From: an uncultured Bdellovibrionales bacterium
Lineage (GTDB): Bacteria; Patescibacteriota; Minisyncoccia; Moranbacterales; GWC2-37-73
Assembly: GCA_964484505.1 (NCBI GenBank)
Contig: CAZAFB010000003.1
Coordinates: 37,044 to 101,043 of the forward strand
Direction of reading: 5' to 3'
Length of the DNA: 64,000 nt
Part shown: positions 1-40,308 of the stretch, one piece after another
How positions within the stretch are numbered: position 1 is the stretch's first letter
How the letters are laid out: every line of letters begins with the position of its first letter
Program-made: the position numbers and the translations under genes
The notes under the pieces: model-generated
Databases searched by the model: none
What the model was told of the DNA's origin: nothing
What the model saw: the letters and a program-made list of their open reading frames with translations, nothing else

Positions 1-843
1 TCTACCGAAGCTCAACAACAAAATGTAGAAACTACTCAAGAGATTTCGCACGAGCCGACTATCTTTGCGGAGCCGATTTTTCACGTGGGAAGCTTCACTA
101 TTACCAATTCTTTGATTATGAGCTGGGTTACTGTCGCTATTTTGGCGACTTTTTTTGTGCTTGTTGGAAAGAATCTCAAGAAGGTTCCGGGAAAGTTGCA
201 AACCGTTTTTGAAATCATTTTGGAACAAGCGCTGAATATGGCTGACACGGTCACGGGAGAAAGAAAAAAAACCTTGCGTTTTCTGCCGATTGCCCTGACC
301 CTTTTCTTGTTCATCTTGGTCAATAATTGGCTGGGACTTTTGCCGGGAGTCGGCACTATCGGTTTCAACGAAGTTGAGGAAGGACATCATGTTTTCGTGC
401 CGCTTCTGCGCGGCGGAACGGCCGATCTTAACACGACTTTGGCGTTTGCACTTTTCACGGTTATTGCGTCGCATATTTTCGGAGTGATTACAATCGGAGT
501 TTGGCATCATCTGAACAAATTCATCAATATTAAAGCGATTGCGGAGATACCAAAGAAAGTTAAAAAGGATCCGACGATTGTGATGGTGAATCCTATCAAA
601 GTGTTTGTTGGCTTGATTGAGGTGGTGAGCGAGATTGCAAAAGTCGCATCGTTGAGCCTTCGACTTTTTGGAAATATTTTTGCCGGGGAAGTTTTGCTTG
701 CCTCGATGATGGCTATTTTTGCATACCTGCTGCCACTGCCGTTCATGTTTTTGGAAATCATCGTGGGAATCGTGCAGGCATTGGTATTTGCGATTTTGAC
801 ACTGGCGTTTTTGAGCATAGCAACGACGGCGGAAGAACATTAA
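1..843 (+). CDS. atpB: ATP synthase F0 subunit a, 5' end probably outside the window. The reading frame is open from position 1.
   Basis: Translation carries the subunit-a hallmark LSLRLFGNIFAGE and multiple TM helices. It is the first gene of the atp operon. Confidence 0.9.
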   Translation, partial: STEAQQQNVETTQEISHEPTIFAEPIFHVGSFTITNSLIMSWVTVAILATFFVLVGKNLKKVPGKLQTVFEIILEQALNMADTVTGERKKTLRFLPIALTLFLFILVNNWLGLLPGVGTIGFNEVEEGHHVFVPLLRGGTADLNTTLAFALFTVIASHIFGVITIGVWHHLNKFINIKAIAEIPKKVKKDPTIVMVNPIKVFVGLIEVVSEIAKVASLSLRLFGNIFAGEVLLASMMAIFAYLLPLPFMFLEIIVGIVQALVFAILTLAFLSIATTAEEH

Positions 844-940
844 AAGAACCACTGATTAGCACATGAACACACATGATTTCACTGATATAAATACAAATCA
901 TGTGTAATCAGGATAATCAAGTGTTAATCAGTGGTTCTGA
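844..940. repeat. Palindromic element family A, gene-less copy 1. Termini are AGAACCACTGATTAGCACATG and its reverse complement.
   Basis: Left end AGAACCACTGATTAGCACATG and right end TTAATCAGTGGTTCT are an imperfect inverted repeat. The same termini occur at 2421 and 15122/15609. Confidence 0.6.
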
Positions 941-997
941 TAATTAATTTAACGCATACACTATTTCTGCTCCCAAAACGAGAGAAAGCAGGGATAA

Positions 998-1237
<240 letters not shown>

Positions 1238-1378
1238 GTGTTTTCTTACGACTTCTTGTTTATTGCAGGAAGTCGGAATGAGGGCAATTATAAAAATATT
1301 TTGAGAAAAAGAACAATGAACAAAGAACAGTGAACAGAGATATTGTTCATTGATCACTGTTCATTGATCACTGATTTT

Positions 1379-1867
1379 ATGGAAGAATTAATAAAAACAT
1401 TTCACATCGATTGGAAACTGATCATTGCGCAATTGGTTAATTTCGCCATTGTGCTTTTCGTGCTGTATAAATTCGCCTATGGTCCGATGATGAAATTGAT
1501 GGACGAGCGTACGAAAAAGATCGACAAGGGACTCAAAGATGCTGAAAACTCACACAAAAAACTTCAGGAAATCGCCGAAAAGGAAAAGGCCGTATTGGTT
1601 GAAGCGAGAAAGCAAGCGCAGGAAATAGTTGCCAAGGCCGAGGCTGCCGCATCAAAGACCAAAGATGAAATTATTGCCGAATCAAAACAGCAGGCGCAAA
1701 AGATTTTGGACGACACTGCCAAAAAGATCGAAATGGAAAAGAACCAAATGCTCGCAGAAGTGAAAACGCAAGTCGCGGAATTGGTGGTTGCAGCGACAGG
1801 GAAGGTTATTGATGAGAAGGTGGACGGGGAGAAGGATAGAAAAATAATTGAAGGAGTGTTGGGATAG
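1379..1867 (+). CDS. atpF: ATP synthase F0 subunit b
   Basis: N-terminal TM helix followed by a long charged coiled-coil (AEAAASKTKDEIIAESKQQAQKIL). The ATG at 1379 is preferred over the upstream in-frame start, which lies in a repeat. Confidence 0.8.
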   Translation: MEELIKTFHIDWKLIIAQLVNFAIVLFVLYKFAYGPMMKLMDERTKKIDKGLKDAENSHKKLQEIAEKEKAVLVEARKQAQEIVAKAEAAASKTKDEIIAESKQQAQKILDDTAKKIEMEKNQMLAEVKTQVAELVVAATGKVIDEKVDGEKDRKIIEGVLG

Positions 1868-1892
1868 ACTAGTATAATCGATTATTTTATAA

Positions 1893-2010
1893 TTTCAAAT
1901 TCACCAAATTACCTAATTCACCTAATAAAATTTCAAATGACCAAATATTTAGCATTTATGAATTTGGCATTTTATTAGGTGAATTAGATGAATTAGAAAT
2001 TAGGAATTTG
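1893..2010. repeat. Palindromic element family B, copy 1 (AATTCACCTAAT words followed by ATTAGGTGAATT)
   Basis: Arms of about 45 bp form a long hairpin between atpF and atpH. A near-identical element sits at 7061-7220. Confidence 0.65.
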
Positions 2011-2015
2011 TTACA

Positions 2016-2417
2016 ATGAAAATCACCACCAAACAATACGCGCAAACATTACTTGACCTGACGGAAAATAAATCCGAGCAGGAGGTTTCTGCTATTGTTC
2101 AAAAATTTGCCGCAGTGTTGAAAAATGACGGGCAGCTCAAAAATGCGGGGAAGATTATGGAAAAGTTTTCGCAGTTGTATAATGCAAAGCACGAGATCGT
2201 TGAAGCGGAAGTGATAACAAGATTTGAAATGGGAGATGTCGAATTGAAAAAGATTGAGGATTTTATTGAGGAAAAATATAAGGCTGAAAAAGTTGAAATA
2301 AGAAATGTTGTTGATGAGAAGATTAAGGGAGGGATTGTGATAAAAGTTGGGGATGAAGTGATTGATGGGTCGGTAAGCGCACAGTTAAAAAAATTGAAGA
2401 GGGAGTTGGTAAAATAA
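2016..2417 (+). CDS. atpH: ATP synthase delta (OSCP) subunit, short form
   Basis: Its position between atpF and atpA and an OSCP-like helical N-terminus. 133 aa. Confidence 0.7.
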   Translation: MKITTKQYAQTLLDLTENKSEQEVSAIVQKFAAVLKNDGQLKNAGKIMEKFSQLYNAKHEIVEAEVITRFEMGDVELKKIEDFIEEKYKAEKVEIRNVVDEKIKGGIVIKVGDEVIDGSVSAQLKKLKRELVK

Positions 2418-2420
2418 ATC

Positions 2421-2513
2421 AGAACCACTGATTAGCACATGATTTTTCTGATTACACATGATTGATTTTTATCAGTGAAATCATGTGTGTTCATGTGATA
2501 ATCAGTGGTTTGG
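2421..2513. repeat. Palindromic element family A, gene-less copy 2
   Basis: AGAACCACTGATTAGCACATGA at the left and TAATCAGTGGTTTGG at the right. Internal words are shared with copy 1 (CATGTGTAATCAG, TCACTGATA). Confidence 0.6.
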
Positions 2514-3007
2514 AATGACAGAAAGAGAAGTTCTTTTGAAAAAAATAAACGTCCGCATTCCAGCTTTCCGGAATGGGACGTTTACATAACAGGACGATCT
2601 TGCTATCGCTAGTCTGTCAAAAACCTATACTTTGCGAGAAGACGGAAAGCTGATGCAATGATCAATGTGAGGACAACGGTAGTCACGCATGTTTGAATGT
2701 GGGATCCGGTTGAAAGGTAGATTGATGGTGAAACTGTGGTGCTTATCGCTACTCCTCGTAGCAGGTTCATGGTTTCCTCCCTATGGTGCGTGTATAGTAG
2801 TTGAACATTGTCAACCGTCAACTATACACCCAAATTAACAATTTGTCAACCATCGAATTCTGATTATTGCATTATTGCCTTAAATAAGCCATAATTTAGT
2901 AATGAGGATTTAATTAAAAAACAGAAAGATACAGAATGAAGCAGAAAGACACAGAAATCATAAATTCCGTGTAGCTGTGTTATTCCGTAGTAAATCTGTG
3001 TAATTCC

Positions 3008-4522
3008 GTGAAATATATGAACAAAGACTACATCATTGATCAATTAAAAAAACAGATCGAAGGCTTCAAGACTGAGGCGACAACTGAGCAGGTTGGGAAA
3101 GTTATTGAGGTGGGAGACGGAGTGGCACGCATCTCGGGTCTTAGCAATCTTATGGCCTCAGAGATGGTAGAGTTCCCGAATGGGGAAATCGGCGTGGCGC
3201 TTAATCTTGAAGAAGATCGCGTCGGTGCGATGGTGCTTGGTGATTATCTCGGTATCAAAGAGGGCGATGAAGTGAAAGCGACCGGTAAAATACTTTCCAT
3301 CCCGGTCGGTGAAGGAATGATTGGACGTGTGATTGATCCGCTTGGAGCACCAGTAGATGGCAAGGGTGATATAAAATCAGATGCATATTATCCAGTAGAG
3401 AAGATTGCTCCCGGCGTAATTACTCGTAAGTCGGTGCATCAACCGGTGCAAACCGGTATCAAAGCGATCGATGCCTTGATTCCAATCGGACGTGGACAGC
3501 GTGAATTGATCATCGGCGATCGTCAGACTGGAAAGACTGCTGTGGCGATTGATACCATCATCAACCAGAAAGGGCAGAACATGAAATGTATCTATGTTGC
3601 GATCGGGCAGAAGGAATCGAAAATTGCCAGAATTTTGGGCGAACTTGAAAAGAACGGTGCGATGGAATATACGACAATTGTTGTGGCTGGCGCTTCGGAC
3701 AGTGCGGCTCTTTCCTACATTGCTCCTTATTCAGGTTGTGCACTCGGTGAATATTTTATGGACAAAGGTGAGGACGTGCTTATTGTGTTTGATGATCTTT
3801 CCCGCCATGCATGGGCATATCGTCAAATTTCTTTGATCTTGAAACGCCCACCAGGACGCGAGGCATATCCGGGAGATGTTTTCTATTTGCACTCACGCCT
3901 TTTGGAGCGCTCTGCTAAGCTTAATGAAAATTTCGGCGGCGGTTCGATGACAGCGCTGCCGATCATTGAAACGCAGGCAGGTGACGTATCCGCATATATT
4001 CCGACCAATGTTATTTCCATTACTGACGGACAAATTTTCTTGGAAACGGATTTGTTCTACAAAGGAGTACGTCCGGCATTAAATGTGGGTATTTCCGTTT
4101 CACGTGTGGGAGGAGATGCACAGATCAAAGCGATGAAGAAAGTTGCCGGAAAACTCAAATTGGAACTTGCACAGTTCCGCGAACTCGAAGCGTTTGCGCA
4201 ATTCGGATCCGATCTTGATGAAAAAACTCGCATCCAGATTGAACGCGGACGCCGCACAGTGGAAGTTTTGAAGCAAGGACAATATGAACCGATGGCAGTT
4301 GAACACCAAGTGGCTATTCTCTATGCTCTCATAAACGGCTTCATGGATGATGTGGCAATAGATAAAATTAAGGAATGGGAAAATGACTTCCATAAATATC
4401 TCGACACGCAAGCGAAAGAAGTCTTGTCGCTAATTACCGAAAAGAAAGAATTGAGCGAGGAAGTTGTGGCGGCACTGGAGAAAGCGATTAAGGAGTTTAA
4501 AGAGATATATCAAACGAATTAA
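3008..4522 (+). CDS. atpA: ATP synthase F1 alpha subunit
   Basis: Walker A motif GDRQTGKT in a 504 aa alpha-subunit homolog. Confidence 0.95.
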
Positions 4523-4609
4523 CACGAATTGATGACGAATGAAAACGAATCACGAATTCGTGTTTCGTGGAAATTCGTTCATACATTCGTGAAAATTTGT
4601 CAAAAATAA

Positions 4610-7003
<2,394 letters not shown>

Positions 7004-7060
7004 GTTGGATAAAATAATTAAGCGTATTTATTAAAAACGCTAAATTTATAATCAGTGTAT

Positions 7061-7220
7061 TTTGAATTCAAAATTCACCTAATTGCCTAATTCACCTAAT
7101 AAAATTTCAAATAATCAAATAAGACATATTTTAGATATTTGTGAATTTGGCATTTTATTAGATGAATTAGGTGAATTAGAAATTTGGTGAATTTGTAAAA
7201 ATGAATTTGGAATTATAAAC
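7061..7220. repeat. Palindromic element family B, copy 2
   Basis: AAATTCACCTAATTGCCTAATTCACCTAATAAAATTTCAAAT is followed by ATTTGGCATTTTATTAGATGAATTAGGTGAATT. It lies between atpD and atpC. Confidence 0.65.
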
Positions 7221-7225
7221 TTTAT

Positions 7226-7666
7226 ATGTCCGGACAAAAAATCAAATTCAAAATTGTTACTCCCGAAAAAACCGTCTTTGAGTCCGAAATTGACCAAGCC
7301 ACTTTACCCGTGACCGACGGGGAGGTGACTATTTTGCCGAATCATCGAAGCTATATTGCTTCGCTTAAGGCTGGTGAAATCATGCTTAAAACTGGTGGCA
7401 AAGAGACCTTGATGGCGACATCGGGTGGTTTTGTGGAATTTTCCAGCAATACATTGGTAGTGCTTGCGGATACGGCCGAGGCTGCAGGAGAAATAGATAT
7501 CAAAAGAGCGGAGGAAGCTATCAAACGTGCCGAAGAGCTTAAGAAAGAAAGAGTTACGATGGATGACATGGAATATGCACGCGTGGCGGCAGCGATCGAA
7601 AAAGAAACAGCGCGTATCAAAGTGGCGAGAAAACATAGGACGAAGCATAATATACAAATCGATTAA
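7226..7666 (+). CDS. atpC: ATP synthase F1 epsilon subunit
   Basis: Beta-sandwich N-terminus (KIVTPEKTVFESEIDQATLPVTDGEVTIL) plus a C-terminal helical hairpin. Confidence 0.9.
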   Translation: MSGQKIKFKIVTPEKTVFESEIDQATLPVTDGEVTILPNHRSYIASLKAGEIMLKTGGKETLMATSGGFVEFSSNTLVVLADTAEAAGEIDIKRAEEAIKRAEELKKERVTMDDMEYARVAAAIEKETARIKVARKHRTKHNIQID

Positions 7667-7818
7667 CCCTACAAATCTACAAATCAATTACCCGCATACC
7701 GGCGAGGCAGGCAAATATACAAATGTGCAAATACAGAAACTAGCGTTTTTGATAACGTTTATGATGTGTTTGTAAATTTGTATATTTGTATAAATTTGTA
7801 ATTTGTAGAACTAAAAAT

Positions 7819-8265
7819 ATGAAAATTCCCTTCAAATTTAAAAACATCCACAGTTGTGAAGCGGTAGTGCTCACTTGCATCGACTTCCGCTTTTGGCGGG
7901 AAACGCTGGAATTCATTGAACAAGAATTGAAACTTACGACATTTGATTTCCCTTCTCTTCCAGGTAGTGCAAAAGCTATTAATGAGTGTGTGAAGAATGG
8001 CGATTTGGCTATGTCTTGCATAAGCGTTCCTTGTGACCTGCACCACGCTAAAAAAATTGTGATTGTGAATCATGAGGATTGTGGTGCCTATGGTGGCTCG
8101 AAAAAATTTGAAGGCGACAAGATTGCGGAGCAGGCTTTTCATGAAATGGAATTGCGCAAAGCCAAGGACGCGATTTTGAGCAAATATCCGGAAAAAGAGG
8201 TAGTTTTAGTTTATGTAAAATTGGTTGATGATGGTGAAACTATAGAATTTGTGGGGGTTGACTAG
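7819..8265 (+). CDS. Small beta-class carbonic anhydrase-like protein
   Basis: Motifs C-I-D-F-R and H-E-D-C-G-A-Y-G-G match the beta-CA zinc ligand pattern (CxDxR ... HxxC). It is short, about 149 aa. Confidence 0.5.
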   Translation: MKIPFKFKNIHSCEAVVLTCIDFRFWRETLEFIEQELKLTTFDFPSLPGSAKAINECVKNGDLAMSCISVPCDLHHAKKIVIVNHEDCGAYGGSKKFEGDKIAEQAFHEMELRKAKDAILSKYPEKEVVLVYVKLVDDGETIEFVGVD

Positions 8266-8364
8266 ACATCGATTTCGTGTATAATATTTAGGCTGTTTGC
8301 TTCTAGCATGCAGCCTTTATTGTTTCGAGAGTTCTTTTAACCCCAGCAAAAGGAGGATACAAAG

Positions 8365-8640
8365 TTGAACATTATTGAAGATGGAAAGAAGAGAGTGGTA
8401 ATTTTCTGTTTCAATGGAACCGAATACGGTCCTGTTGTCAGGAAAGAAATGGAAGTATTGGGTTTCTCTGTTATGATGTACTATGAAAATGCCGCACCGG
8501 AAGTTATCATGGCTGCAATTGAACAATTGCATCCCGTGGATAATCTCGATGTGGGCTTCGTGGTCGTATATCACAAAAAAATGGGAAAAAAATCGCTCCT
8601 TTTAAGAAGGAGTGTGAGGGAAAAAAAGTTGTTTTTGTGA
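8365..8640 (+). CDS. Hypothetical small protein with a TTG start
   Basis: ORF preceded by AAAGGAGG. No recognisable domain. Confidence 0.3.
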   Translation: MNIIEDGKKRVVIFCFNGTEYGPVVRKEMEVLGFSVMMYYENAAPEVIMAAIEQLHPVDNLDVGFVVVYHKKMGKKSLLLRRSVREKKLFL

Positions 8641-8775
8641 GTACGAACGCCAGTAAATAGAATTTTGGCGTTCAAATTGGGGCGTGGTTTGAAAACAGAC
8701 CGCGCTCTTTTATTTTTTTCAAAAAGTGTTGTATAATTAAAATAACTTAAAACTTTCGAAATAAAAACTATAAAC

Positions 8776-8912
8776 AAAAATATGCCCGGTAGTGAAAATT
8801 CAAAAATAATCGCAGGAGCACGAAATTTTTGTATTATTGAATAAATTTTTAAATAAAAAATAAACAAATGAAATACTTTTGGGCAAAGCCCATTTGAATT
8901 TCTACTACCGGG
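8776..8912. repeat. Family C element with 20-bp terminal inverted repeats (CCCGGTAGTGAAAATTCAAA ... TTTGAATTTCTACTACCGGG) ending 1 nt before the ATG
   Basis: The two ends are near-perfect reverse complements. The last 41 nt are identical to the copy at 47857-47985. It contains a GGGCAAAGCCC mini-hairpin. Confidence 0.65.
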
Positions 8913-8913
8913 T

Positions 8914-10017
8914 ATGGAAACAACAAAAAAAATTCTTAAGATTGCTTTGATTATCATCATTGCGATTGTTTTGGCGTTCGCATTACTTCTGGCTTTGCGT
9001 GTTGCCAAAAACGAGAAGGGCGGTTCGCAAACGGGATATGATTCCGCTGGAACAATGCCGATGTCGATAGACGCGGGCAGAAGCATGATGGGCATTGAAA
9101 ACGGCGAAGGGATGGCTGATTTCAATATGCCAAACCCTGCATTGCAAGAAAGTGCTGCGATGCCTGCGCAGAAAGGAGAAGTTGTGGCGAGAGATGTGCA
9201 AGTCGCAGAGAAAAAAATCATCAAAGACGGATATATAAATGCCCAAGTGGATAATGCTGACAATGCAGCCAGGGATATTTCCGGAATTGCCAAACGTTTG
9301 GGCGGTGATGTCGAATCGATGAATTTCCGCAAGACCGCACAGAACGTAAAAAGCGGCACGATTGTCGTACGTGTTCCGTTTATCAATTTCGATACGGCTT
9401 TTGAAGAAATCAAGCAAGTTGCAACATTGGTCAGGAGCGAATCGGCTAATGCGCAAGATGTGACCAGTCAAGTTGCCGATTTGGAAGCTCGCCTCAAAAA
9501 CAAGCAGGCTGAAGAAGAATCTTTTCAGCAAATTTTGGATAATACGAACGGCAAGACCGAAGATGTTTTGATGGTAACGCAAGAACTATCTCGCGTACGC
9601 GGGGAAATTGAACAACTTGAAGCGCAGAAGAAATATCTTGCATCGCAAACGGATATGTCCACGATCACGGCAAATATTTCCGAAGATGTGACGGTTGGCA
9701 CCGCGACCTCCTGGAGGCCATGGCAGATTGCCAAGACTGAATTCGCCAGCATGCTTAAAGATTTGCAAAAATTGATTGGAGCATTGATTGTGATTGTTGT
9801 TCGTCTCACTCCGATACTCCTGGTGTTTATTCTGTTCTTCCTGATTGTTTTTTGGGTAGTGAAAGCTATTATTAAATCAATTTTTTGGAAAAAGAAGCAA
9901 AAGGAGATGCAACAAAAAACAGAAGAACCGATAACTCCTGCTGGCCCTGAGTCGATAAAGAAAGCTCCACGCACAAGAACGATAGCTGCAAGACGTATTA
10001 TTTCACGAAAAAAGTAA
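8914..10017 (+). CDS. DUF4349-like membrane protein (N-terminal TM, central domain, C-terminal TM)
   Basis: This architecture and central region are typical of DUF4349 proteins. Confidence 0.6.
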   Translation: METTKKILKIALIIIIAIVLAFALLLALRVAKNEKGGSQTGYDSAGTMPMSIDAGRSMMGIENGEGMADFNMPNPALQESAAMPAQKGEVVARDVQVAEKKIIKDGYINAQVDNADNAARDISGIAKRLGGDVESMNFRKTAQNVKSGTIVVRVPFINFDTAFEEIKQVATLVRSESANAQDVTSQVADLEARLKNKQAEEESFQQILDNTNGKTEDVLMVTQELSRVRGEIEQLEAQKKYLASQTDMSTITANISEDVTVGTATSWRPWQIAKTEFASMLKDLQKLIGALIVIVVRLTPILLVFILFFLIVFWVVKAIIKSIFWKKKQKEMQQKTEEPITPAGPESIKKAPRTRTIAARRIISRKK

Positions 10018-10065
10018 CTCGCCAATGCAGAGCTAATCAAGAGCGAATAGGTGTTAATTTATATA

Positions 10066-10100
10066 AGAGCGGGTGATGAGCCCGCTTTTTTACTCGCTCT
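10066..10100 (+). terminator. Rho-independent terminator
   Basis: AGAGCGGGTGATGAGCCCGCTTTTTTACTCGCTCT: a GC stem followed by a T-run. Confidence 0.7.
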
Positions 10101-10265
10101 TACAAAATGTATGTTTTCAAGACGGTCGTCATCTCAGCATAAGTTATAATTTATAAGCTGAGCGGGATATTAAGTATCCAAACTGGGCATTTATGTCTGA
10201 ACAGGAAGTGTGCTGAAATTGCAGTGTTGAATTTGACCTTATTATAGCCAAAAATCAAGCTACCA

Positions 10266-10294
10266 TTGACTTTTTGGCTTTTTTGTGCTAAAAT
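10266..10294 (+). promoter_or_regulatory. Sigma70-type promoter TTGACT-N17-TAAAAT
   Basis: Exact -35 TTGACT, a 17-nt spacer and -10 TAAAAT about 100 nt upstream of the 10397 ORF. Confidence 0.6.
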
Positions 10295-10396
10295 AGATGG
10301 TCATGGGATTGTCCCGTGGCGTGTATTATATCAAAGGTCATTTGGACTTAGCCAAAGGGCCTCGGGTCCTTTGAAAACTAAATATGGAGGTGGGTT

Positions 10397-11080
10397 ATGG
10401 CAATCGCCAAGTTTATGCTCGAAGCTTTGGGCGAGGGAGCTTTCCTGCAGGTTTTAAAGAAAGCATGGGGTTGGGCAAAGAAAATATGGCTTGCCTTTGG
10501 AATTGGAGCTAGTGCAAAGGATGAAATTTCCAAGCGACTGGTTGGTTCGAAAGGTTGGGAAGATGAAAATTTCTTTGCGCTTGATCTTGCGGAGGCTAAC
10601 CTTTCCGCGGATAAGAAAAAAATGATTTGCGATGCGGTAAGAATGGTTGAACAATATGATGATGTTTCTGGCACTCAATGGGCCAAAAACTTTCGCATAA
10701 TTGTGACCATTCGAGACAGAGAGCCAAGTCCTGCTGGAATAAGGTCTGGTACAATTATTCTTCAAGATCTTGGCTCGACTTGCAATAGTGTGCAAGAAGT
10801 TTTTTGTCATATTATTGCATTTGGTATTTCTCAAGACCCTTCTTCGACATTGGAGAAGTTTATAAATTTTTCCAAAACTTCCGTTTGGCCATTTATTAGT
10901 GAAAAGGCGGGCGGAGTTCGCGATGCTCTTGATTCTGGCGTAACAAGGCTGGAAAATTTGCGGCGTGACATCGAGGAAGATGAAAGAACTGAAATGATAA
11001 GGGTAAGCCGTATAGCTGATCCTAAGAAAAGGGTAGTTGCAAAAGCTTGGAATTGGCTATCAAAATACATTTTCAACTAA
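10397..11080 (+). CDS. Hypothetical protein, first gene of a G+C-richer cassette
   Basis: Strong SD (TGGAGGTG) before the ATG. No recognisable domain. Confidence 0.5.
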   Translation: MAIAKFMLEALGEGAFLQVLKKAWGWAKKIWLAFGIGASAKDEISKRLVGSKGWEDENFFALDLAEANLSADKKKMICDAVRMVEQYDDVSGTQWAKNFRIIVTIRDREPSPAGIRSGTIILQDLGSTCNSVQEVFCHIIAFGISQDPSSTLEKFINFSKTSVWPFISEKAGGVRDALDSGVTRLENLRRDIEEDERTEMIRVSRIADPKKRVVAKAWNWLSKYIFN

Positions 11081-11095: not shown

Positions 11096-12172
11096 ATGAT
11101 AGGAAGATTTTTTGCAACGATGTTTTTTTTGGCCAACAGGGAAGTAGAAAGGATGCGCAGGTGTTTGGTTGCAGTGTTTTTCGCAACCATTCTCGGCACT
11201 ATCCCAATCCTGCTTTTTCACCCGAAAATCGGTGTTTGTTTGTGGATAACTCTCGTGCCGCTGATTTTCTCGGCGTACAAACTTTTTTCCATCCGCCGCT
11301 TTATCTTTGCCGATATCGCTGGCGAGGTTTTGGAAGCGCTTCATATGCGGGTTGATGATCCGGCGAATCCAAATCCATCGACTAGTATAGTTGACAATAA
11401 GTTCATCCGAATTTATTTGTCGATAATCTCTGGCATTTTTGCCGCTCAAGTGGGATTATTCCTGCTTCTCCCGCTCTATGTTAATTATACAGTGGGAGGG
11501 TTCACTGCACTGATTCTTATTGCCATGATTTCGGCACTGATGATTATTGCAAGCCACGGATTTTTTGCCAGGACATACATGGCACTCGCGGGAATCGCTT
11601 GTGTTGTATATGTGATTGGGCTGGTGCTGTATCTGTTTCCGCAGATATCGTACTACTTGCCACTCAGTAGAATTAATGTTATATCCGTTTCGTCTGCCAA
11701 AATCATTCGAGAAACGGATGAGTTGCGCAAGCAACAAATTGAGACCCTTAACAACGGCAGGTTAAGGGCCATAATGGAATGGCAACGTGAAAATCCTACA
11801 AAGGACTTGCCTGAAGAATATAAGCAAGTCCAAGAAGCTGCGGGAAAAGGGGTGACCGTCGAGCAGTATTGGCAGCAAAAAGCTGTGGCGGCAGAAACTG
11901 CTAAGAAAGCAGCGGAAAAGGCTGATGCTGATCGAAAATTGGCTGAGGCTAAGGCCAAGGCTGATCGGGAGGATATTGAGAGGGAGGCGGCGAAGATCGA
12001 GCAGGAAAGAAACGCCGCCAAAAACCCAATCCAGGAGACGCCGGAAGAACTTCGGCGTCGCCTGAAGGCCATCCAAAGGGCGAAGGAATTGAGGCCCGGC
12101 CCTGATGGTTTATACCATATCGGGGGCGGGGTTCCGCAACCGAAACCTCCTGTAGCAGTGTATGTAGATTAA
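11096..12172 (+). CDS. Hypothetical multi-pass membrane protein with a C-terminal Ala/Lys/Glu-rich coiled-coil and a Pro-rich tail
   Basis: 4-5 hydrophobic helices, then AKKAAEKADADRKLAEAKAKADRED, ending PQPKPPVAVYVD. SD AAGGAGG. Confidence 0.5.
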   Translation: MIGRFFATMFFLANREVERMRRCLVAVFFATILGTIPILLFHPKIGVCLWITLVPLIFSAYKLFSIRRFIFADIAGEVLEALHMRVDDPANPNPSTSIVDNKFIRIYLSIISGIFAAQVGLFLLLPLYVNYTVGGFTALILIAMISALMIIASHGFFARTYMALAGIACVVYVIGLVLYLFPQISYYLPLSRINVISVSSAKIIRETDELRKQQIETLNNGRLRAIMEWQRENPTKDLPEEYKQVQEAAGKGVTVEQYWQQKAVAAETAKKAAEKADADRKLAEAKAKADREDIEREAAKIEQERNAAKNPIQETPEELRRRLKAIQRAKELRPGPDGLYHIGGGVPQPKPPVAVYVD

Positions 12173-12635
12173 AACACTGCTAAGTGAAAAATTGAGGCGT
12201 GGGAGATGTTAACTGACATCGACCGCGCCTTTTATTTTGCAAAGAAATTTCTTGAATTTCTTTGCACGCGGACAGATGCGGACGAGACGCAGAATTACGC
12301 GGAAAAATATCAAAACCGATTCGAATCTACGAATATCCGCAAATAAACTAAAAATGCAAAATACTTCGATACTCGAAAGTATCAAAGTATTTGACCAATT
12401 TATTTTTGAAGAAATTTTTTGATAAAAAAACAAAGCCATATGGCCTTGTCCTTATGTGCCGCGGGAGAGACATCTCACTCGCTCTGACTTTCAGTCTGAG
12501 CTCTTTGAAAACCCACGGTTTTCAAGACTTTCCTTCACGGGAAAACTCAGGTTTTCCCGACCCCTTTCCTGGTTCGAGTCTCCAAAGAAATAAAATTTAA
12601 AAGCCAACTATAAATAGTTGGCTTTTAAATTTCAG

Positions 12636-12719
12636 TACCGCGGGAGAGACTCGAACTCTCATGATATTGCTATCGCTGGATTTTGAGTCCAGTGCGTCTA
12701 CCAGTTCCGCCACCGCGGC
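12636..12719 (-). tRNA. tRNA-Leu(CAA), type II with a long variable arm
   Basis: Manual fold: acceptor GCCGCGG/CCGCGGT, D-loop GAACTGGTAGA, anticodon stem CTGGA/TCCAG with loop CTCAAAA, variable arm GATAGCAATATC, T-arm GAGAG-TTCGAGT-CTCTC. Confidence 0.75.
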
Positions 12720-12866: not shown

Positions 12867-13271
12867 ATGCAAGAACCAAAACAAACAATTAAAAGTTTTC
12901 GTGATTTGGAAGTTTATAGAAATACATATGATGCTAGTATTGTGGTTATGAAAGAAATAGTGCCGTTGCTTCCGGATTCGGAAAAATATGATCTTAAAGA
13001 TCAATTATCCAGATCAAGCAAAGCTGTTCCGCGGCTCATTGCTGAGGGTTATGCAAAAAGACATCAGAAAGCAGGATTCCAAAAATATCTAGACGATGCC
13101 ATGGGAGAATGCAATGAGACCATAGTTGGACTTGAACAATGTTGTGATATTTATGATATCAATAAAGAAAAATGCCAAAAATTAATTGACACATATGATA
13201 AGTCTGGAAGACAATTATACAGATTGTCAGAAGCATGGAGTCGATTTAAAGACGGAAGACGTAACCATTAA
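12867..13271 (+). CDS. Four-helix-bundle protein (23S rRNA intervening-sequence protein family)
   Basis: FRDLEVYR ... DLKDQLSRSSKAVPRLIAEGYAKRHQKAGFQKYLDDAMGECNETIVGLE matches the IVS four-helix-bundle family. It is flanked by an imperfect inverted repeat, GGTTATGGTAACGAG and ATCGTTACCGTTACCC. Confidence 0.7.
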   Translation: MQEPKQTIKSFRDLEVYRNTYDASIVVMKEIVPLLPDSEKYDLKDQLSRSSKAVPRLIAEGYAKRHQKAGFQKYLDDAMGECNETIVGLEQCCDIYDINKEKCQKLIDTYDKSGRQLYRLSEAWSRFKDGRRNH

Positions 13272-14213: not shown

Positions 14214-15137
14214 ATGGCTGCTCAAAATTTTGGTCTCGGCAGGGGATTATCATCACTTATACCTAACGCAGGCACTGCGCCACAGACAGATGCGCCGGTA
14301 GGAAAACGTCCCGTGATCGGCGAAGATGATTCGATTCGCGGTGACAAATATGTCGTGGAAATCGATATTGACTCAATTGTGCCAAATCCGCAACAGCCGC
14401 GCATCCGTTTTGACGAGGAAAAATTGGCCGACCTGGCTTCATCAATCAAAACACATGGAATCATTCAGCCGTTAATAGTAAGTCGCGATGGCAATCAATA
14501 TGAAATTATTGCCGGTGAGCGTCGTTATCAGGCGAGCAAAATTGCCGGACTGAAGAAATTGCCGGTGATTGTTCGTGAAGCCGGGGAATTAGAGAAGCTT
14601 GAGTTGGCGATAATCGAAAATATTCAACGTCATGACCTTAATGCAATTGAAGAGGCGAAAGCATATCAAAAATTGATAGATGAATACCAAATGAATCAGG
14701 AGGAGGTTGCTTTCAAGATGGGGAAGAGTCGCAGCTTGGTAGCTAATAAAGTGCGTTTGTTGTCGCTGCCTGTGGAAATTCAACGGGCGCTTATTGAAGG
14801 CAGGATTACCGAGGGTCATGCAAAGGCGATTTTGGCAATTTCCAACCCTGAAAAACAACGCGCTCTATATGAACTTATTCTCAGAGATAATTTGACCGTA
14901 CGCCAAACTGAAGACAAGACCAAAGATATTTCGGTCAAACCGCATAAACGTGTCGTCAATGTCGACCCTGCATTAAAAGAAATTGAAGAAACTCTGATTG
15001 GCGCTCTTGGCACGAAAGTTAAAATTTCCAAAGCCGGCAATGGCGGGAAAATCGTGATTGAATATTATTCGCAAGAAGATTTGGATGCGCTACTAAATAA
15101 GATACGAACCACTGAAAATATAAGAACCACTGATTAG
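14214..15137 (+). CDS. parB: Chromosome partitioning protein ParB/Spo0J
   Basis: GLGRGLSSLIP, the ParB box IAGERRYQASKIAG and an HTH. The last codons and the TAG stop lie inside the repeat-family-A terminus. Confidence 0.9.
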   Translation: MAAQNFGLGRGLSSLIPNAGTAPQTDAPVGKRPVIGEDDSIRGDKYVVEIDIDSIVPNPQQPRIRFDEEKLADLASSIKTHGIIQPLIVSRDGNQYEIIAGERRYQASKIAGLKKLPVIVREAGELEKLELAIIENIQRHDLNAIEEAKAYQKLIDEYQMNQEEVAFKMGKSRSLVANKVRLLSLPVEIQRALIEGRITEGHAKAILAISNPEKQRALYELILRDNLTVRQTEDKTKDISVKPHKRVVNVDPALKEIEETLIGALGTKVKISKAGNGGKIVIEYYSQEDLDALLNKIRTTENIRTTD

Positions 15138-15619
15138 CACGTGATTAAAATGATTGCACTGATCATAAATGCAGCATGAAAAAATATGTTGATGACAAAT
15201 ATTATAAATCTGAAGTAACCGGCAGCATAATTAACTGCGCGCAGAGAGTTCATCGCGAGCTAGGCAATGGATTCCAAGAAGTCATTTATCAAAAAGCTTT
15301 AGAAATAGAACTAAAACGTGCTGGCCTAAAGTTTGAACGAGAAAAGGAGATGGCTATTTATTATGAAAACGAACTCATCGGAACCAGGAGAGTTGATTTT
15401 CTTGTTGATAAGGATATTATGGTTGAACTAAAAGCAACTACAAAACTGGAAGACGTCAATGTGGCACAACTCATAAACTATATAGAGGCATATAAGGTAA
15501 AAGTAGGCCTGCTTATAAACTTCGGCTCAAAAAGTTTGGAAGTGAAACGTTATGTAAAATGATCCCTATCACGTGTAATCAGGGAAATCAGTGCTAATCA
15601 GTGGTTCTCTAGTGGTTCT
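15122..15619. mobile_element. Family A element carrying a GxxExxY (PD-(D/E)xK-like) gene between 21-bp terminal inverted repeats
   Basis: Left end AGAACCACTGATTAGCACGTG (15123-15143). Right end CAGTGCTAATCAGTGGTTCTC (15589-15609), plus a partial second copy TAGTGGTTCT. 19 of 21 positions match as a reverse complement. Confidence 0.55.
15176..15562 (+). CDS. GxxExxY family protein (PD-(D/E)xK nuclease-like fold)
   Basis: NGFQEVIYQKALEIELKRAGLKFEREKEMAIYYENELIGTRRVDFLVDKDIMVELKA ... GLLINFG matches the GxxExxY family. Confidence 0.75.
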   Translation: MKKYVDDKYYKSEVTGSIINCAQRVHRELGNGFQEVIYQKALEIELKRAGLKFEREKEMAIYYENELIGTRRVDFLVDKDIMVELKATTKLEDVNVAQLINYIEAYKVKVGLLINFGSKSLEVKRYVK

Positions 15620-17093
15620 TTTTCAGCGCTCTTCTTATGTGGGATTTTGCCACAGAAGTGCGCGCGAACTTAAGCCAGTCGCCATTGGGCGATTTTCTAT
15701 CTTTGGAAGTTATAATCTCGATCACTTGTCCGTTTTTGATGATGTGATCCAATGGTATCATCTTCCCGTCAGCCTTGGCGCCGACCGTGTGGTGTCCGAT
15801 TTCGCTGTGGATGGCATAGGCGAAATCTATAGCGGTGGCTTCCTCCGGAAGATCGATAATATCGCCGCGGGGAGTGAATGCAAAAATGTGATTGCGAAAA
15901 AAATCTATTTTCAAGGTTTCCAAAAATTCTTGATCATCTCGACCTATTTCCGTTTGCCACTCACGCAATTGTTTGACCCAAACCAATTCTTTTTCGGTAA
16001 CAAGCGGCTTTTTGCTCATGAATAAAATATTTTTCCAGCTTTTTTTGGCTTTTTCACTATAAATCCAATGTGCTGCAATACCGAACTCGGCTTCATCATG
16101 CATTTTCTGAGTGCGTATTTGTACTTCCAAAATTCTGCCTTCCGGACCGAAAATAGTGGTGTGAATGGATTGATATCCATTTGGTTTAGGCAGGGATATA
16201 TAGTCCTTTATTCTACCGATCATGGGGCGATATTTTTTGTGAACTATGCCCAACGCCTCATAACAATCAGTAACTTCCGGTACTATTATGCGCACTGCTG
16301 AAAGGTCATAAATTCTGTTTATATCCATGTCGTGCTTCTTGAGTTTTTCAAAGAGACTATAGAGACTTTTGGCTCTCCCGTGAATTTCCAAGACGCTTAT
16401 ACCAGCATTGGCCAATTCTTTGCGAAGCTGTTTGATCGCCTGATTCACATAAACCTCTCGCTCCTTGTAACTTTTTTTAACCAATTCCTCGGCGTAGACA
16501 TAATTTTCATGGTCAAGATATTTAAAAGAAAGGTCTTGCAATTGAGTTTTGATTTCGCCGATTCCCAAACGGTTTGCCAGGGGCACAAAAACTTCCATGG
16601 TCTCGCGGGCGATGCGCTGCTGTTTTTCCGGGGGGTTGTGTTCCAGTGTCCGCATGTTGTGCAGGCGATCCGCCAGTTTTATGATAACGACTCGGATATC
16701 CGCAGCCATGGCCAAAAACATTTTGCGCAGATTTTCCAAAAAATATTCTTCATGGGAACCACGCAATTTCAATTTGCCCAATTTGGTTACGCCGTCAACC
16801 ATGTGAGAGATTTCACTATCGAAATTCCTTTCAATTTCTTCCAGAGTATATGCTGTATCTTCGGGAACATCATGAAGTAATCCAGCAGCTATTGTTTTAG
16901 CTCCCATACCTATTTCAGCCAGAATTTTCGCTGTTGCCAGGGGATGTTGAATATAGTCGTCGCCACTGCGTCTTTTTTGACCGCAGTGCGCTTTTTTGGC
17001 AACCTCAAAAGCCTTGCGGATTAAGGCATCTTTTTGCTTGTCCAAAGGGAATTTAAACGCTTTGATAATATCTTCAATGACTAATTGCTTCAT
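15609..17093 (-). CDS. Bifunctional (p)ppGpp synthetase/hydrolase, RelA/SpoT family, no ACT domain
   Basis: HD domain (HDVPED), synthetase domain and TGS domain. The stop codon lies in the family A repeat. Confidence 0.9.
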   Translation of the reverse strand: MKQLVIEDIIKAFKFPLDKQKDALIRKAFEVAKKAHCGQKRRSGDDYIQHPLATAKILAEIGMGAKTIAAGLLHDVPEDTAYTLEEIERNFDSEISHMVDGVTKLGKLKLRGSHEEYFLENLRKMFLAMAADIRVVIIKLADRLHNMRTLEHNPPEKQQRIARETMEVFVPLANRLGIGEIKTQLQDLSFKYLDHENYVYAEELVKKSYKEREVYVNQAIKQLRKELANAGISVLEIHGRAKSLYSLFEKLKKHDMDINRIYDLSAVRIIVPEVTDCYEALGIVHKKYRPMIGRIKDYISLPKPNGYQSIHTTIFGPEGRILEVQIRTQKMHDEAEFGIAAHWIYSEKAKKSWKNILFMSKKPLVTEKELVWVKQLREWQTEIGRDDQEFLETLKIDFFRNHIFAFTPRGDIIDLPEEATAIDFAYAIHSEIGHHTVGAKADGKMIPLDHIIKNGQVIEIITSKDRKSPNGDWLKFARTSVAKSHIRRALKKNH

Positions 17094-19542: not shown

Positions 19543-19672
19543 AATGCTAATTGTTGCTAATGATAAATACGAATGAACGCTAATAATATATGCTAATTAT
19601 TGCAAATAAATAAATGTGAATGAGTTTACTTTTCAGCAGCTTTTGTGTTTATGATTTGCGAAAATTAGCATG

Positions 19673-21935: not shown

Positions 21936-22079
21936 AGTTCTATAAATTACAAATTGTTTACAAATTATTCTATATTAAGTATCCTTTTATATCTTACACC
22001 TTGTGATGTTATATTTACCAGTAAGGCAAGGTCGGTGGCATCTTTTTTGTATATTTGTATTGATTTGTAATTTGTAGGT

Positions 22080-36634: not shown

Positions 36635-36729
36635 AATTAAAGGAAAAACGCAGAAGAAAACAGAAAAACACAGAGACACAGAATTTCAGTGTCATTCTGC
36701 AAGCTTCTGTGTAATTCTGTAATAGCTAT

Positions 36730-36843
36730 ATGAAAGTACGAGCATCAGTGAAAAAAATATGTGCCAAGTGCAAGATAGTAAAGCGCAGAGGAAAACTCTA
36801 TGTGATTTGCGTTACTCCTAAGCACAAGCAACGCCAAGGATAA
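36730..36843 (+). CDS. rpmJ: 50S ribosomal protein L36
   Basis: Manual translation [37 protein letters not shown], 37 aa with the C-x2-C...C...H zinc ribbon. It is below the ORF-track length cutoff. Confidence 0.85.
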
Positions 36844-36951
36844 AAATCGCGAATTGACGCAAATGGAATCGCGAATAATCGCGAATATATCAGCGGTGGT
36901 TATTAGTGAATATTGGAGATAAATTAGTGTAAATTAGTGATTTATAAAATT
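36844..36951 (+). repeat. r-protein leader repeat copy 1 (CGCGAAT and AATTAGTG words)
   Basis: AATCGCGAAT x3, then ATAAATTAGTGTAAATTAGTGATTTATAAAATT immediately before the rpsM ATG. Confidence 0.7.
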
Positions 36952-37338
36952 ATGGTACGTATCGCAGGAATAAATTTGCCGGACGAAAAGCGCATTGACA
37001 TCGCGCTTACCTATATATACGGCATCGGAGACACGACAAGTAATCGCATTTTGGAAGGTTTGGGAATCGACAAGTCTTTGCGCACCAAGGATCTGAGCGC
37101 TGACCAAGCAAACAAGATCCGCGAAGAGGTGGAAAAGAAATATCGCGTGGAAGGAGAACTCAAACATGAGGTAAAGATGAACATCAAACGTCTCAAGGAA
37201 ATTGGTTGCTATCGTGGCTCACGCCATCAGAAAGGTCTTCCGGTAAACGGACAGCGCACCAAAACCAATAGTCGCACCGTTCGCGGTAATGTTCGTCGCA
37301 CGATGGGAAGCGGCCGCAGATCGGAATCTAAGACATAA
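36952..37338 (+). CDS. rpsM: 30S ribosomal protein S13
   Basis: MVRIAGINLP N-terminus. Confidence 0.9.
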   Translation: MVRIAGINLPDEKRIDIALTYIYGIGDTTSNRILEGLGIDKSLRTKDLSADQANKIREEVEKKYRVEGELKHEVKMNIKRLKEIGCYRGSRHQKGLPVNGQRTKTNSRTVRGNVRRTMGSGRRSESKT

Positions 37339-37445
37339 TGATAAAAATCGCGAATCGACTCTAATATAGTCTCGAATAATCGCGAATGTTTTATTAGGGA
37401 TAATTAGTGAATTAATTCGTGTTGATTAGAGATTCATATCATCAT
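37339..37445 (+). repeat. r-protein leader repeat copy 2
   Basis: AAATCGCGAATCGACTCTAATATAGTCTCGAATAATCGCGAATG ... ATAATTAGTGAATTAATTCGTGTTGATTAGAGATTC. Confidence 0.7.
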
Positions 37446-37925
37446 ATGGCAGAAGAAAATAAGACAACAGAAGAAGTGATGGAAAAAGTCGAGGTTGCAA
37501 CCGAAGCTCCTGCTGAAGAAATTCAGACTCAGGAAACTGCTGCGGAAGCTAAGAAAAAAAAGAAGAAGCTCAAAAGGCAAATTTTGAAGGGGCAGGCTCA
37601 TATCCATTGCACATACAATAACACCAAGGTTGCTTTGTCTGACATTAATGGTTCTATTCTTGGCTGGTCAAGTTCCGGCCTGCTCGGTTTCAAAGGAGCA
37701 AAGAAAGCTACTCCCTATGCTGCAGCGCAGGTGGTTGCCGATGTGTCGGAAAAGGTGAAGAAATATGGCTTACAAGAATTGGAAGTATATGTGAAAGGTG
37801 TCGGTAGCGGAAGAGAATCTTCAATTAGAGCTTTGGCTAACCGCGGTTTTGAACTGGTTTCAATCAAGGACATTACTCCGATCCCGCACAACGGATGTAA
37901 GGCAAAGAAACCTCGTAGAGTCTAG
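37446..37925 (+). CDS. rpsK: 30S ribosomal protein S11 with a Glu/Lys-rich N-terminal extension
   Basis: S11 core HIHCTYNNTKVALSD ... GFKGAKKATPYAA after an approximately 45 aa acidic/K-rich tail. Confidence 0.9.
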   Translation: MAEENKTTEEVMEKVEVATEAPAEEIQTQETAAEAKKKKKKLKRQILKGQAHIHCTYNNTKVALSDINGSILGWSSSGLLGFKGAKKATPYAAAQVVADVSEKVKKYGLQELEVYVKGVGSGRESSIRALANRGFELVSIKDITPIPHNGCKAKKPRRV

Positions 37926-38032
37926 AGGATATCAGTCGCGAATCGACACTAATTAGTCTCGAATAATCGCGAATGTGAATTTATTAGAGATAATTAGTGA
38001 TAAATTAGTGTAAATTAGAGATTTATAACATT
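37926..38032 (+). repeat. r-protein leader repeat copy 3
   Basis: GGATATCAGTCGCGAATCGACACTAATTAGTCTCGAATAATCGCGAATG ... GATAAATTAGTGTAAATTAGAGATTTATAACATT, then ATG. Confidence 0.7.
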
Positions 38033-38665
38033 ATGGCACGTGATTTAGGATCAAAATGCAAGAAATGCCGTCGCGCATCAGAAAAACTCTTCCTTAAGGG
38101 TGAACGTTGTGCTTCTCCCAAGTGCGCTATGGTCAGAAGGCCATATGCTCCGGGAGCGCATGGTAAAAGTGTTTCCAGAGGCGCAAGTGAATATGGCAAA
38201 CAGTTGGCAATGAAACAAAAAATCAAGCGCATCTATGGTGTGCTCGAAAGGCAATTCCGCAAGCATTATGAAGAAATCAGCGGCAAGCAAGGAGTTACCG
38301 GTGATTTGCTCATGGCTCGTTTGGAAATGCGTCTCGATAATGTGGTTCGCCGCATGGGATTTGCCAGCGCGCCGTCACTTGCAAGACAGTTGGTTAATCA
38401 TGGATCATTCATGGTTAACGGCAAGCGTGTCACTATTCCTTCCTATGAAGTGAAAATCGGTGATGTTATCTCCATCAATCCTTTGAAAGCTGAGAATGTA
38501 TATTTCAATAATCAAAAACAGTGGATCCAAAATAAAAAGGATGTTCCAGCTTGGCTTCTGCTGGATGGTGCGAAATTGGAAGGAAAAATCGTGTCTGTTC
38601 CAAGTCGCGAGGATGTAGGCGTGCACGTCGATCCTCAGATGGTAGTTGAATATTATTCTCGCTAA
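38033..38665 (+). CDS. rpsD: 30S ribosomal protein S4
   Basis: N-terminal zinc knuckle CKKCRR ... CASPKC and S4 domain. Confidence 0.9.
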   Translation: MARDLGSKCKKCRRASEKLFLKGERCASPKCAMVRRPYAPGAHGKSVSRGASEYGKQLAMKQKIKRIYGVLERQFRKHYEEISGKQGVTGDLLMARLEMRLDNVVRRMGFASAPSLARQLVNHGSFMVNGKRVTIPSYEVKIGDVISINPLKAENVYFNNQKQWIQNKKDVPAWLLLDGAKLEGKIVSVPSREDVGVHVDPQMVVEYYSR

Positions 38666-38739
38666 ATTTTTACTACAAACTAACTTCATAAGTAAACGTG
38701 TTCTTTGCGCCTGGGCGCGATCAGCATGTTCCAAAGGCT

Positions 38740-39720: not shown

Positions 39721-39835
39721 GGATATAAATCGCGAATCGACGCGGATTTAATCCCGAATTATCGCGAATAGCGATGCGAATTGATTCATTAGAGATTATT
39801 AGCGATAAATTAGTGTTGATTAGGGATTTAATTAT
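39721..39835 (+). repeat. r-protein leader repeat copy 4
   Basis: GGATATAAATCGCGAATCGACGCGGATTTAATCCCGAATTATCGCGAATAGCG ... GATAAATTAGTGTTGATTAGGGATTTAATTAT. Confidence 0.7.
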
Positions 39836-40201
39836 ATGAAACATAGAGTAACAGGAAGAAAATTTAGCAGAAAGAAAGGTCCGCGTGAGGCGATGATCAA
39901 GACTTTGCTCGGTAGCATTATTGTGCGTGAGCGCGTTACTACCACTGAGGCGAAAGCCAAGGAAGCAAAGCCAAAAATTGATCGTTTGATCACCAAAGCG
40001 AAAAAAATGAAAGCCGATCCAGCTAAGAGCACCGCAGTGATTCGCGATTTGCGTAAGCACTTGCCTTTGCCTGCTGTGAAGAAGCTTTCCGGAGAATTCC
40101 TGGATCGTTTCCGGGCTCGCCAAAGTGGCTATACCAGAATAACCAAGCTGGAGCAAAGAAAAAGCGATGGCGCAAGAATGGCCGTGATAGAATTCGTTTA
40201 A
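39836..40201 (+). CDS. rplQ: 50S ribosomal protein L17
   Basis: MKHRVTGRKFSRKKGPREAM. Confidence 0.9.
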   Translation: MKHRVTGRKFSRKKGPREAMIKTLLGSIIVRERVTTTEAKAKEAKPKIDRLITKAKKMKADPAKSTAVIRDLRKHLPLPAVKKLSGEFLDRFRARQSGYTRITKLEQRKSDGARMAVIEFV

Positions 40202-40308
40202 GATCGCGAATGATCACGAATAAAATTTCGCGAATTTACACGAATGACTTGCTGAAATTATTCGAGATTATTAATGATAAATTAGTGTAAATTAGCGAAT
40301 AAATTAAT
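40202..40308 (+). repeat. r-protein leader repeat copy 5 (more diverged)
   Basis: GATCGCGAATGATCACGAATAAAATTTCGCGAATTTACACGAATG ... GATAAATTAGTGTAAATTAGCGAATAAATTAAT. Confidence 0.65.

Follow-up and report, generated by a model that had tools for sequence, protein, structure and literature searches.

Two palindromes in the ATP synthase operon

The window (by which we mean the whole stretch of 64,000 nucleotides that was analysed) begins with an F-type ATP synthase operon, which is located at positions 85-7666 of the plus strand and has the gene order atpB-E-F-H-A-G-D-C. Two of its spacers hold long palindromes. The first of these, copy A, extends over approximately 1873-2012 and occupies the spacer (1868-2015) between atpF (1343-1867) and atpH (2016-2417). 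The second, copy B, extends over approximately 7042-7222 in the spacer (7004-7225) between atpD (5600-7003) and atpC (7226-7666). All four genes lie on the plus strand. A sequence-only reading of this DNA had reported palindromes at these two sites; we were able to locate the arms of both, and the identities of the neighbouring genes are backed by Pfam. The G+C content of the two spacers is 21-22%.

In the left arm of copy A (1891-1938, plus strand), the constituent words are AATTCACCA, AATTACCT and AATTCACCT, after which comes the inner motif AATAAAATTTCAAAT. A loop of 23 nt (GACCAAATATTTAGCATTTATGA; 1939-1961) separates this arm from the right arm (1962-2009, plus strand), the reverse complement of which reads ATTCACCTAATAAA-ATG-CCA-AAT. 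The two arms are 48 nt long each and 75% complementary. With an nhmmer model of the arm, the left side is matched at 1890-1947 (E = 1e-11) and the right side at 2009-1947 on the minus strand. In copy B, the left arm (7061-7121, plus strand; arm-model match at 7064-7119) consists of AATTCACCT, AATTGCCT, AATTCACCT and then AATAAAATTTCAAAT. It is followed by the central loop (7122-7135) and by the right arm (7136-7219, plus strand; arm-model match at 7192-7137 on the minus strand), in which a remnant ATG-CCA-AAT can be read on the minus strand, with the CAT at 7151-7153. The inner arms of copy B (7086-7121 and 7136-7171) are 83% complementary, and additional arm pairs reach outward to 7042-7052 and 7212-7222.

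Aligned in direct orientation, copies A and B share 83% identity over 75 nt on the left side and 92% over 51 nt on the right side. Allowing for at most one mismatch, the 12-mer AATTCACCTAAT occurs nine times, always within copies A and B, compared to 0.61 expected occurrences, and a count of nine was reached in none of 100 shuffles. The source contig, from a JGI metagenome, is 111.5 kb long; copies A and B are the only members of the family in the approximately 78 kb of it that were searched with the arm model.

The sequence-only reading had described the palindromes as hairpin-forming, and RNA folding bears this out. For copy A, the predicted folding energy is -34.5 kcal/mol on the plus strand and -38.1 kcal/mol on the minus strand (z = -6.0 and -7.1); for copy B, the values are -39.0 and -40.7 kcal/mol (z = -4.9 and -7.7). 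An equally good fold was not found among 200 shuffles for either copy on either strand. The stem is imperfect and AU-rich, with an uninterrupted inner helix of 19 bp. A scan for promoters and terminators found no terminator in 1868-2015 or 7004-7225, and no U-run is present there. A promoter-like site (TAGACT-17-TATAAT, 1865-1893) overlaps copy A at its left edge; sites of this sort are found at chance rate (22 found, 18 expected). At the gathering threshold, Rfam reports just two tRNAs in the whole window, and at E values up to 1 it gives only chance matches to microRNA precursors in positions 1-9000.

The commonest word contains TCACCT, as does the 3' tail of the 16S rRNA, and its complement contains AGGTGA, a Shine-Dalgarno-like sequence (1915-1926 and 1974-1985, with equivalent words in copy B). 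Shine-Dalgarno-like strings are thereby placed, in the 3' arm, a short way ahead of the start codon that follows. Potentially, this is a chance effect, because other word families lack the match. The delta subunit encoded by the downstream gene atpH has only 133 aa, and its match to the OSCP profile is confined to positions 48-172; almost all of the listed AtpH homologues of the lineage are of similar length (131-151 aa).

Repeats of this kind had been regarded as unusual for such a genome. This view needs correction for the present lineage, in which they are not unusual: almost every spacer of the atp operon, and of the atp operons of relatives, holds a palindrome built of short words. Another family, with AACCACTGATTAGCACATGA-type words, is found between atpB and atpE (844-945) and after atpH (2418-2512). 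Arms of the same type are also found split (15116-15159 and 15563-15620) around a gene of the PDDEXK_3 nuclease family (15176-15562, 131.6 bits), and this unit is a gene-bearing cassette of a different family. The spacer between atpH and atpA furthermore contains an insert of about 400 nt (2513-2917) with a minus-strand ORF of 70 aa (2609-2821), a hairpin and a strong promoter-like site (TTGACA-17-TATAGT, minus strand, 2849-2821).

Outside of the atp operon, five copies of a unit of about 107 nt, with AATCGCGAAT words and then ATTAGTGA/ATTAGAGA words, occupy successive spacers of 36835-40811, presumably a cluster of ribosomal protein genes and rpoA. The two sets of words could pair in RNA only through G-U pairs on the sense strand. 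Further word-built spacers are found at 1310-1342, 2918-3007, 4523-4578, 7667-7810, 19543-19672, 21936-22079 and 36640-36720, where the words, with their complements, are CAGAA/TTCTG, ACGAAT/ATTCGT, ACAAAT/ATTTGT, GCTAAT and GAACA. Palindromes built of words are a general feature of the DNA between the genes of this genome. We also noted a sequence of 41 nt (TTCCTTCACGGGAAAACTCAGGTTTTCCCGACCCCTTTCCT) at 12530-12570 that occurs, 28.7 kb away, in inverted orientation at 41313-41353 with 93% complementarity.

The wider family and its copies in rRNA genes

The degenerate 23-mer ATTCAYCTAATAAAATKYCAAAT of the inner arm is matched exactly by at least 120 metagenome contigs, which come from dozens of assemblies, and by no viral contig. 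The sequence-only reading had spoken of a palindromic family inserted twice in the atp operon, and had named a lack of further copies together with a lack of stable structure as what would speak against it; both the copies and the structure are there, and the description as a repeated family is confirmed.

From the matches listed, we extracted 69 hairpins that are complete and distinct, and whose median length is 113 nt. No ORF contains any of these 69; all are intergenic. Both neighbours were called for 54 hairpins, of which 47 lie between co-directional, four between convergent and three between divergent genes, and most hairpins both begin and end within 5-30 nt of the adjacent stop and start codons. 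The flanking genes that were checked with Pfam are ordinary housekeeping genes. They include pairs such as carbamoyltransferase and dihydroorotate dehydrogenase, NusB and L32, or MraZ and the MraW methylase, as well as a translation-factor-type GTPase (presumably IF-2), a radical-SAM enzyme, riboflavin synthase and a peptidyl-tRNA hydrolase.

Each arm is a tandem run of three to four short words, and the two arms are inverted to each other. The most common word is AATTCACCT, followed by AATTTCT, AATTGTCT, AATTACCT and AATTCCT; the inner end of the arm reads AATAAAAT[G/T][T/C]CAAAT. Near-identical elements can be found in unrelated flanks (L036 and L072 with 96.8% identity, L104 and L111 with 89%). 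Several short contigs from other samples (L215, L217 and L205) begin or end inside elements, which suggests that the repeats break assemblies.

Within the same arms, at least six copies (L014, L024, L026, L035, L038 and L062) carry a gene of about 130 codons. The three products that we scanned reach PF05635 scores of 42-47 bits, where the cut-off is 33.8. [quoted passage not shown] The gene starts with AATAAA-ATG-CCA-AAT (Met-Pro-Asn), and this start coincides with the inner-arm motif. Both copies in the window have kept AATAAA-ATG-CCA-AAT on the minus strand, at 1962-1984 and 7145-7167 (in copy A, the remnant start codon is the CAT at 1968-1970). They are therefore gene-less derivatives, and the former gene pointed against the atp genes. 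In all five clear cases the cargo gene has the same direction as both of its neighbours, and where a gene-less copy has an ATG in one of its arms, this remnant is in sense orientation in ten copies and in antisense orientation in ten. These counts, although the numbers are small, fit the idea that expression of the cargo would depend on transcription from the host genes.

Two further genes are worth recording here. A stand-alone PF05635 gene in the window (12867-13271, 69.8 bits) adjoins a tRNA-Leu gene (12635-12719) and has no arms of the family on its flanks. In L078, an ORF that we take, from its motifs, to be a reverse transcriptase is found about 780 nt from a solitary arm, with another gene in between.

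Some members of the family are located in rRNA genes. In L048, both elements fall, according to Rfam, within the LSU rRNA gene (6124-10734, minus strand). The first is an insert at LSU model position 583/584, which, reading the consensus against the E. coli sequence, we assume to be helix 25. Helix 25 is a classical intervening-sequence site; in general, these sites are helices 9, 25 or 45. The second element is an insert of 252 nt near model position 225. In L089, an element replaces the hairpin loop at model positions 152-178. BLAST searches with rRNA queries suggest that the association with rRNA is limited to these three elements and to L054, located in the spacer of an rRNA operon; about 65 of the 69 copies lie between protein-coding genes.

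The 16S rRNA gene of the organism itself (on the source contig, L210 13875-15626, some 2.7-4.4 kb past the end of the window) is 1752 nt long, compared to a model of 1533 positions. About 260 extra nucleotides are found near its 5' end, bounded by an inverted repeat of 17 bp (CCACACCATTCAGCTTT / AAAGCTGAATGGTGTGG); the insert presumably encodes a GIY-YIG-like peptide.

Related operons and sibling strains

The closest atp operons come from genomes labelled Candidatus Moraniibacteriota or Patescibacteria, and the AtpH homologues are labelled Moranbacteria; the host is a Moranbacteria genome of the candidate phyla radiation. In six GTDB relatives (AtpG 66-74% identical), the atpF/atpH spacer varies between about 15 and 475 nt and the atpD/atpC spacer between about 47 and 627 nt. 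These spacers contain other palindromes, or genes of the PF05635 or PDDEXK_3 type between word arms. For example, L123 has a PF05635 gene between arms with GTTCACAGT words, and L122 and L123 have a PDDEXK_3-like gene between arms with ACACAGAA words. The most compact operon is that of L124, in which the atpF/atpH spacer is empty and the atpD/atpC spacer holds only a tandem run of AATTTCT; L127 likewise has a compact atpF/atpH spacer without such elements. Apart from weak matches in L124, the nhmmer arm model did not find any copy of the family in 80 atp loci of named genomes.

In L206 and L208 (AtpH 73% and 71% identical, respectively), the palindromes in the spacers are similar in architecture, but their words are specific to each lineage: three atp spacers of L208 carry AAATCCTAAT-type words, and two of L206 carry TCAATGA and TTTTCAAT. 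Given that the words are specific to the lineage, copies within one genome are more alike than copies at orthologous positions of different genomes.

Copy A is 100% identical in the sibling strains L202, L203 and L204, and the atpD/atpC spacer with copy B is 100% identical in seven contigs from at least five samples. We were not able to find an empty site in any sibling strain; all of them carry both copies. An apparent empty site in L205 was rejected, as the contig starts inside the element. The invariance of both copies would also fit a retained function. On the other hand, it is no evidence of selection, since the surrounding DNA is equally identical in these strains.

The siblings do differ elsewhere in the operon. 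L204/L202 and L212 are identical to the window over most of it, and nearly all of the differences are packed into coding DNA beside polymorphic spacers: 65 out of 73 are found within the last 318 nt of atpH (window 2100-2417), and 124 out of 125 within the first 1150 nt of atpD (window 5596-6750). The atpH/atpA spacer is wholly different in strains that are 95-99% identical elsewhere; it has 590 nt in the window (2418-3016) and 177 nt in the siblings (L202, 8403-8579; L204, 5207-5383), where arms with AACGTT and TTCGTA words surround a GTCATCCTGAA...TTCGGAATGAC palindrome. Since the differences cluster in the coding DNA that adjoins polymorphic spacers, this looks like the result of recombination which would have imported a spacer element together with segments of the flanking genes.

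Cassettes with the same architecture as the 400-nt insert of the atpH/atpA spacer are found in the atpG/atpD spacer of L208 (about 11250-11700) and of the sibling L212 (about 270-780). The cassette in L208 has short stretches in common with the insert of the window (2513-2917; 83% identity over 78 nt in BLAST), and the one in L212 has no BLAST match to it. The unit of about 400 nt seems to occupy different spacers in different strains.

Interpretation and alternatives

The two palindromes belong to a family with gene-bearing relatives and with copies in rRNA genes, their position is strictly intergenic, and some related atp operons have no comparable insert. Because members of this same family occur inside 23S rRNA genes, we interpret copies A and B as elements of the intervening-sequence type: gene-less selfish cassettes that have settled in intercistronic spacers, are co-transcribed with the operon and are plausibly cut by RNase III, the cleavage being the part that we infer. 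We assign a probability of roughly 0.6 to this reading.

Intervening sequences have been described as selfish elements with inverted-repeat borders and a sporadic distribution, some of which carry an ORF of the PF05635 type, and which are excised by RNase III; according to the same review, their origin and function are still unclear (PMC4990558). The family described here shares several features with the 23S rRNA intervening sequences of Leptospira, Coxiella, Salmonella and others. Both have a long stem of terminal inverted repeats (in the window, arms of 48 nt in copy A, and of 36 nt with outer pairs in copy B) and an optional PF05635 gene of about 130 aa in the loop, which is present in the full-length relatives and of which the window copies keep ATG-CCA-AAT. 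Both have gene-less forms of 100-200 nt and occur sporadically among relatives, and members of the present family sit in 23S rRNA hairpins (L048 and L089), including the putative helix 25. Unlike the rRNA intervening sequences, however, copies A and B, like about 65 of the 69 hairpins, are found in spacers of protein genes, not in rRNA, and the arms of the family repeat short words in tandem instead of forming one unique inverted repeat. Excision by RNase III would apply here by analogy.

From the same group of hosts, insertion sequences in rRNA genes of candidate phyla radiation bacteria have been surveyed (J Bacteriol 2024, PMC11270868). That survey likewise reports PF05635 ORFs as well as ORF-less inserts in 16S and 23S genes; in the passages searched it deals with rRNA genes, and the words "palindrom" and "inverted repeat" do not appear.

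The elements are located inside the operon and would therefore be transcribed together with it. Each transcript would form the imperfect, AU-rich stem with its uninterrupted inner helix of 19 bp, and this stem could be cut by RNase III, as in rRNA intervening sequences, if the copies in mRNA behave like the rRNA-resident members. Cleavage would separate atpF from atpH, and atpD from atpC, on the atp transcript and leave the reading frames unharmed. The RNase III signature motif was not found within the 64-kb window, a result which says nothing on the rest of the genome. Since they are gene-less copies of a widespread selfish element, we regard the palindromes as probable passengers of the atp transcript and as possible sites of RNA cutting, and not as evolved regulators.

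Alternatively, the hairpins could be elements selected by the host for the processing or stability of intercistronic RNA, which would set the ratios of the ATP synthase subunits by segmenting or protecting the mRNA. Their exact position between cistrons agrees with this, as does the presence of some hairpin in almost every atp spacer of the window and of most relatives, and the fact that both copies are invariant in all siblings while a neighbouring spacer has been replaced. However, the flanks are 100% identical as well, and thus the invariance is uninformative; L124 and L127 do with compact atpF/atpH spacers without such elements, and orthologous spacers differ between lineages in sequence and in words. 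Moreover, the same family is found in many unrelated spacers and in rRNA genes, and shows no bias in orientation or towards the sense strand. For 40 copies with known context, we were not able to find a bias in RNA stability between the sense and the antisense strand (17 vs 23 copies, p = 0.22), nor an excess of G-U pairs on the sense strand (86 sense vs 108 antisense). Host selection is hence, in our view, a rather unlikely explanation.

We also asked whether the two arms of one element covary. The test was run in three versions, the last of which was corrected for the ascertainment bias of the search pattern. Arms pair with their own partner at -29.2 kcal/mol and in chimeric combinations at -31.3 kcal/mol; for the outer words alone, the values are -12.4 and -12.9 kcal/mol (p = 0.36). 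As own arms are no more complementary than chimeric ones, the complementarity comes from a common vocabulary and not from compensatory evolution. Since own arms match no better than the arms of other elements, it may be that hairpin formation itself is not the property under selection. This raises the possibility that the word arrays are binding sites, on DNA or RNA, for the PF05635 protein or for a host factor, and that the hairpin is a by-product of inverted arrays. The words are conserved over dozens of metagenome assemblies, and the Pfam family of the cargo also includes an accessory protein that is known to bind nucleic acids, with the reservation that the match to the bAvd model is weak and sub-threshold. 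Yet other families use quite different words, and recent common descent explains the conserved words equally well, which is why we consider such sites unlikely.

The three roles that the sequence-only reading had suggested were an attenuator, an RNA processing site and a MITE. A MITE-like role comes closest. The family has many copies in unrelated flanks, presence and absence at the same sites among relatives and a gene-bearing full-length form; on the other hand, PF05635 is not a transposase and no target-site duplication was seen. A classical MITE in the strict sense, derived by deletion from an insertion sequence and mobilised in trans by a transposase, is in our opinion very unlikely. Terminal inverted repeats, a size below 250 bp, multiple dispersed copies in unrelated flanks and near-identical pairs are indeed what one would expect of it. 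But on inspection of the outer boundaries of the 69 copies we saw no target-site duplication, the flanks being merely A/T-rich; among the loci retrieved, no transposase with arms of the family was found and the only longer forms encode PF05635; and the arms are arrays with a variable number of words, not a fixed inverted repeat.

REPINs and REP sequences with their RAYT genes (Pseudomonas, E. coli) are likewise short, dispersed intergenic hairpin doublets with a protein gene flanked by inverted repeats, and their families, too, are homogeneous within a genome. There, however, the flanked gene is an HUH/Y1 transposase (IS200/IS605-like) and here it is a PF05635 four-helix bundle; in addition, the present family has several gene-bearing copies that are co-directional with host operons, and its arms are AT-rich word arrays. 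The Correia elements of Neisseria and other MITEs (RUP, ERIC, Rickettsia palindromic elements) resemble it as co-transcribed palindromes of 100-180 bp between genes, and Correia elements are reportedly cut by RNase III in mRNA. The differences are that neither TA nor any other target duplication was seen here and that copies are also found inside rRNA genes. We know of no transposase partner for the family.

As for the remaining two roles, an RNA processing site at the atp palindromes would be plausible by analogy only: members of the family are intervening sequences of 23S rRNA genes, and RNase III cuts elements of this kind. That the palindromes act as a transcription attenuator or intrinsic terminator within the operon can hardly be credited: apart from the stable hairpin between genes, we see AT-rich stems with no U-tract after them, no terminator-like match in either spacer, copies that lie mostly between co-directional genes of one operon in either orientation at random and without a sense-strand bias, and the same element inside rRNA genes, where transcription has to pass through it.

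Palindromic repeats between genes, PF05635 genes and rRNA intervening sequences have each been described before. In a limited search of the literature we did not find an account of a single family that, in these bacteria, occurs both as rRNA intervening sequences and in mRNA spacers, nor of arms built of words or of palindromes between their protein-coding genes. One could speculate, and we do so tentatively and with more doubt than confidence, that rRNA intervening sequences are merely the rRNA-resident part of a larger guild. This guild would consist of word-built palindromic cassettes, with PF05635, PDDEXK_3 or GIY-YIG-like genes or with none, in hairpin loops and spacers of conserved, highly transcribed operons of the candidate phyla radiation. 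Its members would move from one homologous site to another through recombination or homing, with co-conversion of the adjoining coding DNA, and the cargo proteins would recognise the word arrays.

In summary, one family is found in three states, as an intervening sequence of the 23S rRNA, as a gene-bearing cassette in operons and as a gene-less hairpin between essential genes, and with this the nature of intervening sequences becomes a comparative and experimental question. The cutting of mRNAs by RNase III at the elements, the binding of word arrays by PF05635 and the movement of copies are made testable. The finding is also relevant for annotation and operon prediction and, since some contigs end inside an element, probably for assembly. 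It means that supposedly streamlined genomes tolerate dense selfish DNA with a fast turnover in their most conserved operons.
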